Assembly: GCA_010015585.1 (NCBI GenBank)
Contig: ML975152.1
Source: Eremomyces bilateralis CBS 781.70
Taxonomy: Eukaryota
Strand: one strand, 5' to 3'
Length of the DNA: 33,430 nucleotides
Made by a program: the position numbers and the translations under genes. This document shows, in pieces, positions 12,973 through 24,771 of the stretch. The notes under the pieces are model-generated. The model did no database searches and had not been told where the DNA came from. It was given only the letters and a program-made list of their open reading frames with translations. Every line of letters starts with the position of its first letter. Position 1 is the stretch's first letter.

Positions 12973-13291
12973 TGTAGATCCAAAGCGCCAATGAGTTGCA
13001 TGCTCTCTTGGTAGGGTCTTTGACTACAGCTGGGTGTCTGCCTGCGAGTTTGCCTGATGGGCGAGCAACTACGGCACCGCAAGACGCAAGGCTGGGATGC
13101 GATCGTGTCGATGCTACCTGCAAAGCATTTTTCCAGCCTTTAAATCTCTACAACCTTACCTGCTTCACCTCCTACGACTACGTCTTTAAGCTGGGCGAAG
13201 TGACTTTCTACGAGCATTGCTTTCCAGCTTATGGTTTCCTTTCTGCGCGTTTCGTGCTGGGTCTACCAAAGTTAATTTGAGAAGTTTGAGA

Positions 13292-16200
13292 ATGGCGACT
13301 TTAGTATGTCCGCCCTCTTCAGCCTCGAGCTGTACTGACAAGTCTCTATAAAGCCCACAGCCCTCGCAGAGGCTACGAGAATCGAGAATGAGCGCCTAGA
13401 CCGGATCAGAGTCGCCTTGAATAATAAGAAGCTCGTCGTTGTTATTGGGGCTGGAGTGACAATCAGTGCGACATCAACGGTATTAGGCGAATCGCTCTCT
13501 CGAATATCGTGGCGAGGCCTAATTCGAAATGGCTTGGACTATCTTGTTACGGATGGCCACGTTGAGGGAAACAATCGAAGATTGAAGCGTGCATGTGAGA
13601 TACTCGAACAGTCCAATCCTGATCTGGACGATCTGCTCGATGCGGCAGGTATTCTGAAATCTCTACTCGACAAGACCCGTCAACTGCCTACCTGGTTACA
13701 AGCAGTGTTTGGCGGTCTCTCTAAGGAAATTAGGCACCCGGCCGTGCTCGATGTTCTGAAATCCTTTCACGAGAAAGGAGCCATGCTGCTTACAACGAAC
13801 TACGACGATCTCCTCGAAGAAGGCCACTGCAACTTGCGCCGCATCAACCGGTCCAATCATGAAGAGGTCTTGAAGTTCCAAAATGGAGATTTGCGCGGGA
13901 TCCTCCATATACACGGCAGCTACTACGCACCCAATGATGTCATCCTGGACGCAACGGACTATTATGAGGTTAGACACTCAGATGATGTTCAGGATGTACT
14001 AAAAACGCTTTGGAATGCTTACACGATGATGTTTGTTGGCTGTGGATCCGGATTGGAAGACCCAAACTTCAGCGCACTGTTGAAATGGGCGTGTGAACAT
14101 CAGAGGAATATCCCAAATCGACATTATCTTTTGGCTCGCACCGGAGATTATCTCAATCTCCAGCCTCTGGTGCGATTACAGTTTGGGCCAAGCTATTCGG
14201 ATCTTGTCCCTTACCTGCAGCGACTGCTGGAAAACCCTGAGCAGCCAGCGGCAGTAGGATTGACCGGTCGATTTCGTAAGTGACCTTCGATATTGCATCG
14301 GCTAGGGATAGATCTATGCTAACCGCATAGTAAGATCGTGAATCTATGTCCGAGAGCCCAAACCCAAAGAGAAGGAGGCTAATAGTAGAGAAGGGCTCAG
14401 AGAACGAACTCGATCGCCTGCCATTCTCCGCTGAAGCACCTTTCAATTCATTTCAAAACCAACACGAGCCTACATGCCTCCCTAATACCCGCGTCAATAT
14501 TCTGGAAGAAATATTTAGCTGGGCTGATGGACAAGATAAACGGTTCATCTTCTGGTTGAACGGCCTTGCCGGGACGGGAAAGTCTACGATTGCTCGTACT
14601 GTTGCGCGCAGATGTTTCGATTCAGTCTGTCTTGGGGCCAGCTTCTTCTTCTCAAGCGGTGGTGGAGACGTTGGCCATGCTGGCAAATTCGTAACAAGCA
14701 TTGCAGTACAGCTTGCAAGAAACGTTTCTGCTCTCCATCAACACATTTGTGACGCTATTGCAGAGCGCAGCGATATTGCCGGCCAGTCCCTCCGCGATCA
14801 ATGGCATCATCTCGTCGTCCGTCCGCTTTTAAAGCTGGACGGCAAGGACTCCCGATCCTCATATGTTCTAGTTATTGATGCTCTCGATGAGTGTGCTAAG
14901 GATAGCAACATCCGAATCATTCTGCAACTTTTAGCCGAGATACGATCGCTAACGAAGGTCCGACTACGAATATTTTTAACGAGCAGACCTGAGATTCCGA
15001 TCCGATTTGGGTTCTGTCAAATACCAGATACGGAACACCAGGACTTTATCCTCCACAATATCTCACCATCAATTGTGGACCACGACATTGCTATTTTCCT
15101 AGAATACAATCTGACACTCATCGGGCAGGAACGCTCTCTAGGCGCTGACTGGCCCGGCGGAGATAACATTAAACGCCTGGTTCAGAATGCAAGTGGCCTA
15201 TTCATCTGGGCGGCAACAGCATGTCGGTTTATCCAAGATGGGAGACGATTTACAGTTAAGAGACTGAGTACAATACTTGACGGCAGTAGCAATGCTGCTA
15301 CGGCACCAGAGAAGCACCTCAACGAAATTTACATTACTGTTCTCAGGTATTCCATTTCCCCAGATTATTCGGATGAGGAGAAAGAGGAGTTGTACGGAAT
15401 GTTGAGACATACTCTTGGGAGTATAGTTCTGCTCCTCTCCCCTCTCTCTTCCTCTTCTCTAGGCAGGCTTATCCACCTTCAAACCGAGGACATTGACCAG
15501 ACGTTAGACGATCTTCATGCAATACTAGACATTCCAGAGGACCGACGTCGCCCGCTTCGTCTACACCACCCTTCATTTCGCGACTTCCTCCTTGACAAGA
15601 ATAGGTGCAGTAACTCAAATTTCTGGGTCAACGAGAAGCAAGCACATGGGGCATTAGCTACGAGCTGTATACAGCTAATGTCGACCTCTCTTAAGCAAGA
15701 CATCTGTGTAATGGAATCTCCAGGTGTGCTCGTGGCTAATATATCGAGCAATCGAGTGCAGCAATACTTCACTCCGGAGATTCAATACGCATGTCTCTAC
15801 TGGGTTCAGCATCTTCAGAAGAGCGATGCTCGGCTTTATGACAACGACTTAGTGCATCAGTTCTTGCAGATACACTTACTCCACTGGCTTGAGGCGCTAA
15901 GCTGGATGCGGAGGATCTCTGAAGGGATCTATGCAATTACTTCTTTAGAGGCCGTTGCCCTTGTAAGTAAGCTAACAGTATTACACCAGTCTTCCAGCTT
16001 AATTTAGTTCAGGAACATCACTGTCCCCGTCTCTCCGAGTTTATTCAAGATGCCAAACGATTTGTACTATTTAACCAGCCAGTGTTAGAGTGCGCTCCGC
16101 TACAGGTCTACTATAGTGCATTGATTTTTGCACCTGCTATGAGTATAGTTAGGAGGCAGTTTAACGACCGGATACCTCGATGGATACAAAGATTGCCTAA

Positions 16201-17180
16201 GGTCGAGAATGATTGGGGTGCTCTACTACAGACATTCGAGGGCCATGGGGGGGCGGTCTTGGCAGTGGCCTTCTCGCCGGACGGCAAGGTGGTAGCGTCG
16301 GCGTCGGNNNNNNNNNNNNNNNNNNNNNNNNNNNNNNNNNNNNNNNNNNNNNNNNNNNNNNNNNNNNNNNNNNNNNNNNNNNNNNNNNNNNNNNNNNNNN
16401 NNNNNNNNNNNNNNNNNNNNNNNNNNNNNNNNNNNNNNNNNNNNNNNNNNNNNNNNNNNNNNNNNNNNNNNNNNNNNNNNNNNNNNNNNNNNNNNNNNNN
16501 NNNNNNNNNNNNNNNNNNNNNNNNNNNNNNNNNNNNNNNNNNNNNNNNNNNNNNNNNNNNNNNNNNNNNNNNNNNNNNNNNNNNNNNNNNNNNNNNNNNN
16601 NNNNNNNNNNNNNNNNNNNNNNNNNNNNNNNNNNNNNNNNNNNNNNNNNNNNNNNNNNNNNNNNNNNNNNNNNNNNNNNNNNNNNNNNNNNNNNNNNNNN
16701 NNNNNNNNNNNNNNNNNNNNNNNNNNNNNNNNNNNNNNNNNNNNNNNNNNNNNNNNNNNNNNNNNNNNNNNNNNNNNNNNNNNNGCCGTGGCCTTCTCGC
16801 CGGACGGCAAGGTGGTAGCGTCGGCGTCGAGCGATAAGACGATCAAGCTGTGGGATGCCGGATCGGGAGCGGCCCTGCAAACGCTGCCTATAGACGCTGT
16901 TGTTCAGAGACTTTCGTTCTCCAATGATGGGACATCCCTCCGGACTGAAAGAGGACAGCTACACCACGCAATTCTCTCCCACGATTTAGCTGCTTCCGAA
17001 TCAAGCCGTTCATGGGCTATATTTGTGAAGCAGCAATGGATAAGCTGCGGCATGGACAATATGCTTTGGCTTCCTTCCGAATATCGGCACTGCTGCGTTG
17101 ATATTCACAGCAGCGTGGTTGCTTTTGGATGTAGATCTGGTCGCGTGACAGTCATGGCATTCGACTTTGAATCTTACTAG
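13292..17180 (+). CDS. NLR-like protein SIR2-like - NACHT - WD40; predicted exons 13292-13303, 13354-14275, 14335-15962, 16013-17180 (contains an N-gap)
   Basis: SIR2_2-type motifs VIGAGVT, TTNYD, HIHG and FVGCGSGLEDPNF. NACHT motifs CLPNTRV, Walker A GLAGTGKS (14562-14585), Walker B VIDALDEC, LTSRPE and GLFIWA. Then APLQVYYSALIFAP, HET-E-like WD40 repeats and a MLWLPSEYR tail. The fusion requires the AAG acceptor at 14332-14334. Confidence 0.85.
16228..16885 (+). repeat. High-identity WD40 repeat array collapsed into an assembly gap
   Basis: 42 identical nt at 16265-16306 and 16788-16829 (VAFSPDGKVVASAS) flank 477 N. Confidence 0.85.
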
Positions 17181-17764: not shown

Positions 17765-19128
17765 GCTGATCTCCGGTCTACGATCCAGATACAGGGACAC
17801 CAAGCTGAATTGGTTACATCCCTCCGGGTACTGGGAGTCTGGCTCGACCCTTCCCTCTCATAGAAGGACCACATCCTCCGAGCAACACAGAGGGGACTTA
17901 AGGCTTTCGATTCCCTGGCGAGGGTAACTTCGCCGGTATGGGGACCATCCGTCCGGAAATCGAGGCTGCTCTACACAGCGGTTACACGGCCCATTATGAC
18001 ATACGGCGCCCCAATCTGGGGAGTCCGCCAGCAGGGGGGGCCAATCTCTGAAGGCAAAATGAAAGACCTAGCCAAGGTACAGAACAAGTGCCTTCGAAAT
18101 ATCCTAGGGGCTTACAAACGGACACCAATCGCCGCGCTTGAGAGAGAGGCGGACGTTCCCCAATCGAACTCTACGTCATAGAACGGGCCGCTCAAAGAGC
18201 AGCATCGACGAACTTCCATAAGGTCGCTGCCCAGATTGAGGGAGCCCTGACGCAAGTCTGGGATGCTGCCTCCGCTCCCCCGAGACGAACTCGAGGCCGA
18301 CCCCGCCGTGTCAGGTCTAAACCTTCACCCATAATGTGTACTCTCTGGACCAAGTATGACAAACTTCTGTTCCCCCGGCCCGAACCAGCTAGAGGATATC
18401 AGACACAACAGCGAAAAGGCCCGCACCGGGTGATCCAGGATGAATATCGGGCGAAATGGAGGGAGAGATGGCAAGCCGAAGCGGCCAAACCAGGAAGGAG
18501 AGCAAGGACATGGAAGGACCCGTGGGAAAACCAGTGCCTTAACCGATTTCATGGCCTTCAGAAACACGAGGCCTCGGCGTTTATGGCACTATGGACTGAG
18601 GTAGTTGGAGTTAAAGGATGGCCCGCGAAAATTGGTGTCCCTGGAATCCACCCTGCGTGTGAATGCGGGGCCCCCCGACAGTCTCTCTACCATCTCCTTG
18701 CATTTTGCCCGCAGCGGACCGACCAGAGAATCGCGCTCCTCCAACGAGCTAGAACAACGAACTTCAAGAGGATATTCATGACAGGGACAAGGTGCGTCAC
18801 GCAGCAAGGTGGCTGATCGATGCGGGAGGTCTAGAGCAATACCGGGTGGCCAAGGAAGTTGAGAAGGAGGTAATAGAGGACTGGAAACCGTTCCAGCCCC
18901 TCCACGATGTGCCAGAATAAGCTCTCCGCGTAGGCGGAAACACCGACTCGTACGGAAAGATGATAAACGTTTGAGATAGTCTACTAAAGGGAGGAGGCGG
19001 GATTTTATGTACCCGCAGCCTCAGGGCTACGGGGAAACTTTTGCCCGCGGCAGACCAGATAGAATACCGTGCTCATAATTAGACCCGAAAGGGATCCAGA
19101 TAGTACGTTAAATTGATTCTTATTATTA
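17765..19128 (+). mobile_element. 5'-truncated, degenerate Tad1-like non-LTR retrotransposon (LINE)
   Basis: End of RT LRVLGVWLDPSLS*KDHI, thumb LLYTAVTRPIMTYGAPIW and ILGAYKRTP, zinc knuckle CECGAPRQSLYHLLAFC, C-terminal AARWLIDAGGLEQY and stop at 18918-18920. (TAT)n tail at ~19120-19130. 15-bp TSD at 17750-17764 and 19129-19143. Confidence 0.92.
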
Positions 19129-21231: not shown

Positions 21232-24038
21232 TCATTCATCCCCCGCCTCCATCACCAACCCTACCCGTCCCCTCCTCCCCGACCGCGCCTCCTTCCGCTT
21301 CCTCCGCCCAAAACTCACATTACTCGCTGAATCATCCGGCAAGATCTCACTCCGCTCCTCCCACCACCCCACCTCCGTCCCCCCGTCCCCCTCGCTCTCC
21401 CCCTCGCCCCACCCGCTCGCCGGCGTCCCACCGCGCACCTCGACGCCGCCGGACCCACCCCGGCGCGCCTGCGCCAACATCGCCAACCCGGCGCCGCGCT
21501 GGCGGAGCTTCTGCCGCACCGTCTCGGCGTGTGCGTGCAGCGCCTCGAAGGCGTCCTCGAGGACCTCCATGCCGGTGTAGATCTCGCGCTCGATCTCGGC
21601 GAGGACGGCGATTTCAGTGTCTTCGTCGAGAGNNNNNNNNNNNNNNNNNNNNNNNNNNNNNNNNNNNNNNNNNNNNNNNNNNNNNNNNNNNNNNNNNNNN
21701 NNNNNNNNNNNNNNNNNNNNNNNNNNNNNNNNNNNNNNNNNNGGATGGAGCGGAGGGGGGGTTGCGGGGAGAATGGGGTGGGGCCTCGGGATGCGGGGGC
21801 GAACGGCGTGGTGATACGAGAAATTCCAGGCCGTACGACGCTGGGAGATTGGGTGTTACGGCTGGATGGAGGGACCGGATAGATGCCTTCGGCGCCAGAC
21901 CACAGGAAGCCGTCGAATCGACCGGATACGAGGACATCCCATTCATGCTCACTGACCGCAGCCATGGTGGCGAGCACACTGTGGATGTGCGGATTCTTCA
22001 AAAGGTAGATGGTACACTCTGCGTCCCGTGGGGGTTTCTGTAGTCGGTAAAGCCGTTGGATCGCCGAGACGGTTTTTGCCAGCAATTCGGGTCGCGGACG
22101 ATCGATCGCGCTTGGGGGCCGGGAACCGGGTGTGGGTACCGACGGGAGATCCAGATGGAGTGCACTGAAGAGGGGACGAAGAGAGGGTTCCAGGTGGGTG
22201 AGAATCGCAAAGGTAAGCGTTTCATCGTCAATTTCTGCCGGGGGGCTCGATGGATCGGATGGCTGGCTGGCAAGCCAAGATTGAACGGCGTGTTGAGTTT
22301 TCTTGCTCTGTCGAATGTAATGAGATTGGTATTCTTCCGGGATATCGATATCCAATTTCTGCATAGGAGCCTCGCGTGTGCGGATGGAGATGCCCAAGCC
22401 CTGTGCGTTGGGGGAGATGGTGAACGGTGGCCATGGAGGGAGCTCACGTCTGCCAGCAACGTACTCAAGGATCTCACCCCAGCTGATTCCCGAGTCTTCC
22501 GAATTTGGAAGTTGACGGTCTGGGTTAGAACGGCACATGACGCAAGAGCACACCTCGGCGGAGATACTACGAGCAAAGACGGCTTCTAATCGATCGAGAA
22601 GGCGTCGAGCAACGGAGCGATATCCTGTGGCTACTGCAAGCGACCCATTTTTTGTCATCACCTGTTCGTAGTCTGACAGAAGCTTGTAGAACGGTCCAAA
22701 AATCGATTCGGAATGTGAACTTTGCGTAGCCGGAGGAACCGGAGACTGATATGTTTGGTAGTTCGGGATTGATTGAGATTTTGCCGCTGCAGTAAGCAGG
22801 GTTTTTGGGATCAATTGGGGTAAGCCACCGTTCTGCAACAAGTAGTCGACTCTGGGAACATCTGGTGGTGCCATCATAGGTGGAGGAGGCGGGGGAGGGG
22901 GAGCATTGGGGTTACTTTGAAACGAGGACTGTCCCTGATCCAACCCGTGAGGCGCTGCTGATGTCGTTCGAACGGGTGTTACATCGCTTTCGCCGGCAAA
23001 TATGTCGACTGAAATCGGTTGTTTTCCGGTTCCAAATGGCGAGATAGGCGGCTTGTGTTGAATAGGGGTCTTCGGGGATGAGTCTGTCGCAGACATTGGT
23101 GACGAATTTGACGTTGGCATGGTCCCTTGCTGCGACGGTTTTAATCTTCCGTTCAGAGTTGATGTCCCATCTGACTCTGTGACTGTTGTGGGTGCAGTAT
23201 GCGTGCCATCTCCTGTCGAAGAAACTTTCATTTTTGAACGGGAGTTCCGCAATGTACTTGGTGATGACCGTCCGGTCGACGCCGTCTCTTGCACAATTGA
23301 GTCGTCTTGTAATATCTCGCTTCTTCGTAGGCTCGAGGCTGACTTCACTGGCTTTGGCGCACTGGGTTTCATGCGCCTATACCCGTCATCCACGCTTCGT
23401 CTTCCTGCCGATGGGGACGCAGTTTTTGTTCTCTCTGGTATGTTCACCATGTTGGCACTCGCCGCCCTTCTTTGTCCAGCATCCGTTGCTGTAAGAGGAG
23501 GACTGGGAGGTGCTTGTGTTCCTCTGGCCGGCGTCGGGGGAGTTTTCGTAGCACCAGGACTCAGTTTCCATGCTCCGTCTTTGTCGTGTCCGAGATCGGT
23601 AGGGTCGGGGGTATAGAGAGACAACCGAGGGTTCGCAATTTTCTCACGACTGCCAATGGCTTCGCGACTGTGTGCTTTGGAAAATGAGGGGTATGACGAC
23701 ACGTTGGTGGAGGAGTTGCCGATCGAGGCGGCGGAGGCACGACGCTCCTTTTCAGGGACGGAGGTTGACATTTTCGTTGGCGTGGAAGTTCGCGAGGAGT
23801 GGTGGTGTCGTTCGCGGTCTCGATCTCGATCGCGGTCTCGGTCACGGTCTTTATCTTTGGACGCAGCTGAGGAGGTGGAAACTTTGCGGGAGGACTTCCG
23901 TCGATGCCGTTCTCGATCGTCTTTCACCTTCGGTTCTCGAGGCGAGTCGCGGTCGCGGTCACGGTCACGATCTTTCTCTCTGTCCTTGTCCTTGGTACGT
24001 TTGCTGGGACGGCGGATTTCCGCACCTCTGCTGGACAT
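21232..24038 (-). CDS. Conserved Pezizomycotina hypothetical protein with a low-complexity N-half; spans an N-gap
   Basis: Long ORF with RD repeats, a poly-Pro run and globular segments (PRVDYLLQNGGLP, SLAVATGYRSVARRLLDRLEAVF, GRFDGFLWSGA). Past the gap the coding frame is DEDTEIAVLAEIEREIYTGMEVLEDAFEALH...PDDSASNVS, stopping at 21232. Confidence 0.85.
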
Positions 24039-24771
24039 GTTGACGTACGATCAACATGCCGCAACGAAGGAGTACGTCTGGTACGGATGACCTCGAGAGC
24101 AAGCGTTGAGGTGCGACCAGGATTCCCAGAAGCTTGGGTAGCGAACGTTCAGATCGGGTTGGATTGTTGGAGACACAAGCGAAGGGCGGTTATGGGACGA
24201 GCCGCATTGGATGATGTGGATGTGCTCGAGCCTATCACAACGTTTGGGTGTTGGTGGTGATGATGGATGTAAGGATGGAGTGGAAGGATGAAGGATGGGG
24301 TTGAAAGCTGTGCTGTAGGAGGGTGGAGGGTTGGGAAATGCTGTGAGAGGGTCAAACGGACGAAGGATGGGGAGATATGTAAGAGTTGTACAGAAACGTC
24401 GGAGACATGGAGTCATTAGGTGGTGATTGATGTTATGATGTTGCACCTTTTGCGTTGTTTCACTTCCGATTGCTGTGTTGGCACATGAGAGGGGAGCCTG
24501 AGGCCATGAGGCCATGACGACAACCAAACAAACACGCCAGGTGTAGAATCCTTGAATCAATTGATGAGGCACCAAAATCCGGGGGTGGGGGCTAGGGGGA
24601 GACGCCGATTCAGGGTCTCGCCACACCAAGGTTCTATGTATCGTCGGGGTCGTCGGAAGGCCCAATTTCGGTCCCATGCCAGGATACATTTTTGAATACT
24701 CCGTTCGGAATACGGAATACCGGTATCGTATTATGATAATCGTATTATGATGTGATATCATCTAAGTCTGC

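Follow-up and report, generated by a model that had tools for sequence, protein, structure and literature searches.

Gene structure and transcription of the locus

We analyzed a 33,430-nucleotide (nt) stretch of contig ML975152.1 from Eremomyces bilateralis CBS 781.70 (GenBank assembly GCA_010015585.1), referred to here as the window, which carries on its + strand a gene (positions 13292-17180) whose four exons read as open segments and predict a protein with the domain order SIR2-NACHT-WD40. An earlier note on this DNA, made from the sequence alone, had placed a fungal NOD-like receptor (NLR; NOD, nucleotide-binding oligomerization domain) with a SIR2 effector at this position, and its span is borne out by an ATG at 13292 and a stop codon ending at 17180. 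The motifs that it listed are also present (see below); three short introns and a run of 477 N within the gene were not stated there. Exon 1 (13292-13303) contributes the start codon and three further codons. Exon 2 (13354-14275) encodes a SIR2_2 (SIRim-type) domain, here called the head, in a 307-residue segment (P0001) identified from translation, Pfam matches, and a fold model. Exon 3 (14335-15962), assigned from translation and Pfam, encodes 542 residues (P0002) comprising a NACHT nucleoside triphosphatase (NTPase) followed by a winged-helix/helical region, and exon 4 (16013-17180; P0003 and P0004) supplies the NACHT-WD linker, the WD40 array, degenerate C-terminal blades, and the stop codon, as judged from Pfam WD40 matches and from likeness to a homolog, P0005. 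The latter is an annotated 1188-residue "WD40 repeat-like protein" of E. bilateralis with SIR2_2-NACHT-WD40 architecture that matches every segment of the window gene in order.

A first reading of the sequence by eye placed the three introns on the basis of their splice signals (donor, branch site, acceptor). Intron 1 (13304-13353, 50 nt) and intron 2 (14276-14334, 59 nt) are both of the GT..AG type and are exactly removed in run X1, the single public run that contains this stretch (stored as contigs; its label "RNA?" is a guess), in which the joint 13303>13354 skips 50 nt and fixes the 3' end of exon 1, and the joint 14275>14335 skips 59 nt. A 1290-letter contig bears the intron 1 joint at a depth of 176, and depth drops from 176 to 115 in the bin containing this intron, as expected for an uncovered intron. 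The locus is transcribed and spliced at introns 1 and 2, a conclusion based on the spliced joints and not on the run label, because intron-less DNA of the locus is unlikely. The same contig (record 1 of run X1) aligns to 13100-13303 from its letter 350 onward, so that the leader upstream of the start codon (13100-13291, + strand) is also transcribed. As the contig reaches 13100 only at letter 350, the leader may extend to ∼540 nt or be joined to an upstream transcript. Intron 3 (15963-16012, 50 nt) is predicted from a GTAAGT donor, a GCTAAC branch site, and a CAG acceptor, and its removal, which splice signals and collinearity with the homolog support, gives a junction collinear with P0005; if retained, it would put a stop codon at 16005-16007.

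Contigs of run X1 also carry alternative letters at 14621-14675, 15156-15176, and 15837-15888, and one contig fits the window from 14483 on and differs from it upstream. These sequences point to expressed paralogs with a NACHT-region identity of 95% or more, and one of these paralogs may differ in its 5' part. At the repeat, neither the depth (5690 at 16700-16843) nor the stretches lacking cover can be interpreted, paralogs piling up there.

The 477-N run (16308-16784) lies within the WD40 array. Its two 45-nt flanks (16262-16306 and 16785-16829) are 98% identical, and the WD40 repeats are therefore near-identical in DNA. The flanks lie 523 nt apart, a distance divisible neither by 3 nor by the 126-nt length of the repeat unit, and the frames before and after the run differ by one; we therefore take it to be a gap whose size is nominal. 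Of the canonical repeats, only the first and the last are readable, the repeat number being hidden by the gap; P0005 has four canonical WD40 repeats followed by degenerate blades. The frame difference and the spacing that fits no whole number of repeats would also be accounted for if this copy were decaying or truncated, with the sensor array broken or intron 3 retained and no full receptor made, and this would agree with run X1, in which an intron 3 joint is missing and one contig starts within that intron. We consider such decay very improbable. A second N run in the same window (21633-21742) indicates that the assembly has ordinary gaps elsewhere and makes a nominal-size scaffold gap the simplest explanation, and, together with the differing frames, also more likely than withheld sequence as the source of the N run; near-identical WD40 repeats are known to break assemblies, according to passages of PMC12222747; and all readable parts of the gene are open and collinear with P0005, with introns 1 and 2 cleanly spliced.

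The head is an immune-type SIR2_2 domain

The motifs reported for the head in the earlier note were all found at the positions given, namely the GAG codons at 13447-13455, TTNYD at 13792-13806, HIHG at 13906-13917, and FVGCG..LEDPNF from 14038. A profile hidden Markov model search, which that note had proposed, assigns the domain to SIR2_2 (PF13289; E value of 3.2e-17, 63.4 bits against a cut-off of 24.5), and the canonical SIR2 family (PF02146) is not among its Pfam matches at E values up to 0.01. The reported absence of a zinc ribbon also holds, the 307 residues including four cysteines, none of them in a CxxC pair. PADLOC models for Dsr1 (2.5e-13), ThsA (2e-11), and LmuA (1.5e-8) match the head, and no NCBIfam model does.

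The earlier note had likened the head to bacterial defense proteins. When the head is searched against sequences with solved structures, the top match is eukaryotic, human FAM118B (E value of 1.3e-20, head residues 25-291, covering the full domain), ahead of the next match by about 15 orders of magnitude in E value; a ThsA-like chain (1.7e-5), DSR2 (2e-4), and KomC (0.015) follow. An AlphaFold2 model, built from a 45-sequence alignment (the head and 44 selected homologs, all shorter than 500 residues), has a mean predicted local distance difference test score (pLDDT) of 91.9 and a predicted template modeling score (pTM) of 0.89, and gave the structure-prediction check that the earlier note had suggested a favorable outcome. 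Foldseek comparison of this model with the PDB again places FAM118B first (E value of 5.7e-12, template modeling (TM) scores of 0.68/0.70), then EcThsA, DSR2, BcThsA, KomBC, and SeThsA, with no canonical sirtuin among the matches listed. A canonical deacetylase sirtuin is thus rejected for lack of a PF02146 match, of a zinc module, and of a matching fold among the Foldseek matches listed.

Passages of PMC12700824 give W65, N163, H206, D255, and Y307 as the likely NAD (nicotinamide adenine dinucleotide)-binding or catalytic residues of FAM118B. These align to identical residues of the head, Trp53 (13510-13512), Asn149 (13798-13800), His187 (13912-13914), Asp236 (14059-14061), and Tyr281 (14194-14196), all encoded in exon 2 on the + strand, when the construct numbering of FAM118B is shifted by an offset of 20 that we deduced from four consistent positions. 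In the 45-sequence alignment Asn149, His187, Gly32, and Gly34 are invariant (45/45), and Trp53 and Asp236 are kept in at least 90% of the members. Sequence and fold model together identify the head as a SIR2 domain of the immune (SIR2_2/SIRim) class, not a deacetylase sirtuin, in which the catalytic Asn and His and the NAD site are conserved and NADase activity is predicted.

The NACHT-WD40 body and its relation to P0005

Profile searches, likewise proposed beforehand, confirm the NACHT module (NPHP3_N, E value of 5.7e-31; NACHT, 3.6e-7), and Pfam further detects a TANC1-type winged helix in P0002 (HTH_TANC1, 5e-5) and WD40 repeats before (4.5e-7) and after (3.2e-9) the gap. The Walker A (GxxGxGKST, 14562-14588) and Walker B (hhhhDALDE, 14865-14891) motifs are intact. 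The NACHT part matches 2588 longer proteins at E values of 0.001 or lower among 7999 scored; in the best 120 of these 2588, P0005 is followed by NACHT-WD40 proteins of 57-71% identity, many of them named HET-E-1, which agrees with the HET-E-like body described in the earlier note; identity to the HET-E-1-like proteins that bear HET or PNP_UDP heads is 60-70%. The matching bodies in the same best 120 carry HET, PNP_UDP, DUF676-type, RelA_SpoT, and other head domains, and at least two carry a SIR2_2 head, P0005 and a protein of Zopfia rhizophila. The NACHTs of two other proteins with the same head are only 26% identical to that of the window, and comparison with the NACHT of P0060, a bacterial SIR2-NACHT protein, gave no significant similarity (E value of 0.071).

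Identity to P0005 amounts to 85% in the NACHT part (gapless over all 542 residues), 69% and 67% in the two exon 4 parts, and 68% in the head. The intron 2 junction and the other exon junction compared read alike in the window gene and P0005. From these identities and from the tree described below, strict orthology of the whole gene with P0005 appears doubtful: either the head may have been swapped or converted, or it may be evolving much faster than the NACHT.

Proposed mechanism

We think it probable that the locus encodes an expressed fungal NLR of the HET-E/NWD type in which a SIR2_2 (SIRim) domain occupies the usual death- or effector-domain slot and cleaves NAD+ on oligomerization. In the proposed sequence of events, a ligand bound by the WD40 propeller would release the NACHT NTPase, leading to oligomerization; the oligomers would bring the SIR2 heads together and thereby switch on NAD+ cleavage, much as ThsA, DSR2, and FAM118B/A depend on oligomers or filaments for their activation; and, as the output, the hyphal compartment concerned would die or stop growing, either during allorecognition or as a defense against a parasite. 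We propose this mechanism because relatives of the head behave in this way. ThsA, DSR2, and KomBC have been solved as oligomers or helical assemblies, according to PDB entry titles, and FAM118B needs filaments and its paralog FAM118A for activity, according to passages of PMC12700824. Published passages also name SIR2 as one of the effector domains with which bacterial NACHT proteins target NAD. By this analogy, we infer that oligomerization would lead to NAD depletion and cell death.

Several points weigh against this assignment. The label of run X1 as RNA is a guess and its library type is not on record; no intron 3 joint is listed in this run, in which the contig that begins inside the intron does so at 15989, and retention of intron 3 would cut the product short just past the NACHT region. 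The WD40 array is unreadable through the gap, its flanking frames differ, and the sensor may not be intact. The head lags behind the NACHT in identity to P0005 (68% versus 85%), and the two heads are not specific sisters in the tree described below. Human FAM118B alone is described in PMC12700824, in the passages concerned, as a very weak NADase that needs FAM118A, and a conserved site is therefore no proof of strong NAD depletion. Finally, our literature searches found no enzymatic or genetic study of any fungal member.

The weak activity of the human relative also bears on another explanation, in which the head is a signaling or modifying enzyme, not an NAD-depleting killer: it would either make a signal derived from ADP-ribose or attach ADP-ribose to a target, with a non-lethal outcome. 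Passages of bioRxiv 10.1101/2024.09.18.613514 describe the human relative as a weaker NADase that does not kill cells and probably has a role in signal transduction. Asp236 of the head is kept and corresponds to D255 of FAM118B, which is absent from SIRT2 and ThsA (PMC12700824, in part), and it thus places the site with the FAM118-like type, apart from that of ThsA. On the other hand, HET and PNP_UDP occupy this N-terminal position in NACHT-WD40 bodies that are closely related. These two domains are regarded as death or nucleotide-degrading effectors. Bacterial relatives of the same fold deplete NAD, as far as published passages describe them. On balance we regard a signaling enzyme as unlikely, and retain the oligomerization-activated NAD+-cleaving receptor as the preferred explanation.

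Head family, phylogeny, and origin of the fusion

A search of representative proteins with the head retrieved 2145 clusters at E values of 0.001 or lower, of which 1483 reach 1e-10 and 87 reach 1e-30. Among longer proteins, 84 of 7999 scored candidates have E values of 0.001 or lower. The same head (42-68% identity) is fused to NACHT and WD40 in P0005 and to NACHT and ankyrin repeats in P0015, P0019, and P0021; it occurs with NACHT alone or on truncated contigs in P0008, P0009, P0017, and P0026; and its other partners are ankyrin repeats alone (four proteins), tetratricopeptide repeats (TPR; P0013), SH3 (P0024), and PNP_UDP (six proteins). Bacterial SIR2_2 proteins, some of them with NACHT, come next at about 25-33% identity. 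Proteins of similar length (168-538 residues) gave 214 matches, and free-standing proteins of ∼300 residues (49-67% identity) are abundant among the best 120 of these. At least four free-standing members occur in E. bilateralis itself, alongside two NLR-fused copies.

Two further arrangements were observed in the family. P0006, P0007, P0010, P0012, P0014, and P0016 (613-714 residues, fungal-type) join SIR2_2 directly to PNP_UDP, lack a NOD module, and are by their domain matches proteins with two nucleotide-targeting effector-type domains. In P0150, P0151, P0153, P0157, and P0159 from Pseudogymnoascus and Bisporella (385-413 residues), this SIR2_2 domain is accompanied by an HMG box (PF00505/PF09011), a fusion that suggests that the enzyme also exists bound to chromatin or DNA.

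For phylogenetic analysis, the SIR2 part was cut out with a head-family profile, which matched 351 of 472 proteins, 326 of them over at least 220 profile positions. The tree comprises 93 rows, selected by hand from all long matches P0006-P0040, twelve long proteins (ten of them named bacterial), every seventh similar-length match, and every fifth cluster match. Rows with less than 230 profile positions were removed, and the set contained no sequence named FAM118 or ThsA. It was obtained by a quick LG+G4 search with Shimodaira-Hasegawa-like approximate likelihood ratio test (SH-aLRT) support and midpoint rooting, and its deep branches are unsupported (support of 10). All named fungal rows fall in one 54-row clade (support of 99) apart from the bacterially named rows. 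In this phylogeny against bacterial proteins, of the kind called for by the earlier note, the head lies in a fungal clade. Within the fungal clade, the window head belongs to a 7-row clade (support of 99) with five Eremomyces sequences and one unnamed sequence, in which the P0005 head is sister to the free-standing P0147 (99), another SIR2-NACHT protein has two free-standing proteins as sisters of its head (99), and free and NLR-fused heads are intermixed. Also in E. bilateralis, P0089 (a free SIR2_2 protein) and P0009 (SIR2-NACHT) are close in the tree and each comes from a 997570-nt contig; they may be neighbors or a tandem pair.

Free-standing relatives raise the alternative that the receptor head acts mainly as a seed or adaptor, which once the NACHT has oligomerized would nucleate head-to-tail polymers of free-standing SIR2_2 paralogs that would do most of the NAD cleavage, an arrangement likened to the FAM118B/FAM118A partnership or to the templating of separate effector proteins by fungal NLRs. 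The abundance of free ∼300-residue family proteins speaks for this, as do the four free E. bilateralis copies beside two fused ones, the free proteins being the tree-nearest relatives of the fused heads. Against it, a six-frame search of the window with a SIR2 profile finds only the head, some of the apparently free proteins may be truncated gene models, and the surface patches that form FAM118B filaments are vertebrate-specific, according to passages of PMC12700824. We think a mainly seeding role unlikely. A specific form of this idea, in which ligand-induced NACHT oligomers would nucleate head-to-tail filaments that recruit free SIR2_2 paralogs and amplify the signal through the enzyme polymer, strikes us as quite unlikely; if true, fungi would have a third way of relaying a signal from NLR to effector, in addition to covalent fusion and templating by amyloids, and the polymer seed would form a mechanistic bridge to the human FAM118B/FAM118A filaments.

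For the preferred reading, a receptor whose own head cleaves NAD+, the comparisons also bear on how the fusion arose. The head occurs free or with other partners, and the body occurs with other heads; on this sequence evidence the fusion was assembled in fungi by domain shuffling, with the head as one of several interchangeable modules on a NACHT-WD40 chassis. Head and body have separate histories, because the NACHTs of two other proteins with the same head are 26% identical while those of HET-E-1-like proteins with other heads are 60-70% identical. Domain shuffling in fungal NLRs was reportedly described by Dyrka et al. in 2014. Inheritance of the whole fusion from a bacterial SIR2-STAND protein was considered and is ruled out by the NACHT comparison with P0060 together with the position of bacterial heads in other clades.

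Neighboring genes in the window

The neighbors of the receptor gene in the window encode a cytochrome P450, a major facilitator superfamily (MFS) transporter, a fungal transcription factor, an EF-Tu-like GTPase, an alpha/beta hydrolase, and a C2H2 zinc-finger protein; none of them resembles a partner of the receptor gene, and the six-frame search with the SIR2 profile revealed no second SIR2 copy in the window. Just downstream of the gene, a 224-codon open frame (18142-18813, + strand) has no Pfam match at E values up to 1. The second N run, of 110 N, lies inside an open frame on the - strand (21315-24050) with no Pfam family, the length of which is partly an artifact of that run.

Comparison with known systems

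The novelty implied by the earlier note was overstated. Fungal SIRim-NACHT/NB-ARC-repeat proteins have been described and read as NLR-like (Bonhomme et al., bioRxiv 10.1101/2024.09.18.613514, in the passages concerned), and the part of a supplementary table of fungal NLRs that we examined (PMC9815663) has at least nine rows that bear the annotation "SIR2", in most cases alongside NB-ARC and TPR. A protein from one of these rows, RDW58657.1 (P0252), is related to the head, with 33% identity over the matched stretch and an E value of 1.7e-35. The terms "SIR2" and "sirtuin" do not appear in the main texts of PMC9815663, of fungal NLR reviews, or of a 2026 study of fungal NLR evolution. The architecture is thus already known in print, and the present gene adds a member with a WD40 sensor. 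Transcribed, with a conserved NAD site and a well-annotated close homolog, it is a good though unsurprising choice for testing, for the first time, how a fungal NLR with a SIR2 head functions. It raises the question of whether SIR2-mediated NAD cleavage serves as an NLR output in fungi, as in bacteria, and could help to settle whether a death effector or a signaling enzyme stood at the start of the FAM118 lineage. The mixing of free and fused heads in one fungal lineage also offers a natural system for the swapping of effector modules onto receptors.

The fungal and animal SIRim proteins of clade A, as described in passages of bioRxiv 10.1101/2024.09.18.613514, resemble the window protein in their NLR architecture, and the human member of that lineage, FAM118B, is its best sequence and fold match. 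They differ in that those passages name ankyrin and tetratricopeptide repeats, whereas the window protein has a HET-E-type WD40 array. By its best hits, the head is a candidate member of clade A/SIRanc. With human FAM118B and FAM118A (PDB IDs: 9r0p and 9r3e) the head has in common the non-canonical SIR2_2 fold, the absence of a zinc ribbon, and five identical NAD-site residues; in the structural alignment, however, only 24-26% of the residues are identical to those of FAM118B, and the FAM118 proteins stand alone, whereas the window domain heads an NLR. Membership in the FAM118 clade as defined in passages of PMC12700824 (vertebrate-specific, with at least 41% identity) is ruled out by the fungal source and by this level of identity. 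The HET-E, HET-D, and NWD proteins of Podospora are alike in their NACHT, in WD40 repeats that are near-identical (in the window gene, 98% over the 45-nt flanks of the gap), and in an array that breaks assembly, but the window head is SIR2_2 and not HET, and the variable positions of its repeats are hidden by the gap.

Bacterial SIR2-STAND and SIR2-NACHT proteins (bNACHT, Avs-type), DSR1/DSR2, and ThsA follow the same logic, in which a SIR2_2 head of the NADase type is joined to a STAND NTPase and a sensor made of repeats, and share with the window head the fold and the catalytic Asn and His. Their heads fall in clades separate from the fungal head. The earlier note saw in the gene a fungal counterpart of bacterial SIR2-STAND immunity; a direct counterpart is not supported, the nearest NACHTs being fungal and HET-E-like. 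Because the bacterial heads lie in separate clades and the bacterial NACHT shows no significant similarity, the likeness to bacterial SIR2-STAND proteins is, as judged from these comparisons, a convergent assembly from common parts and not an inherited fusion.

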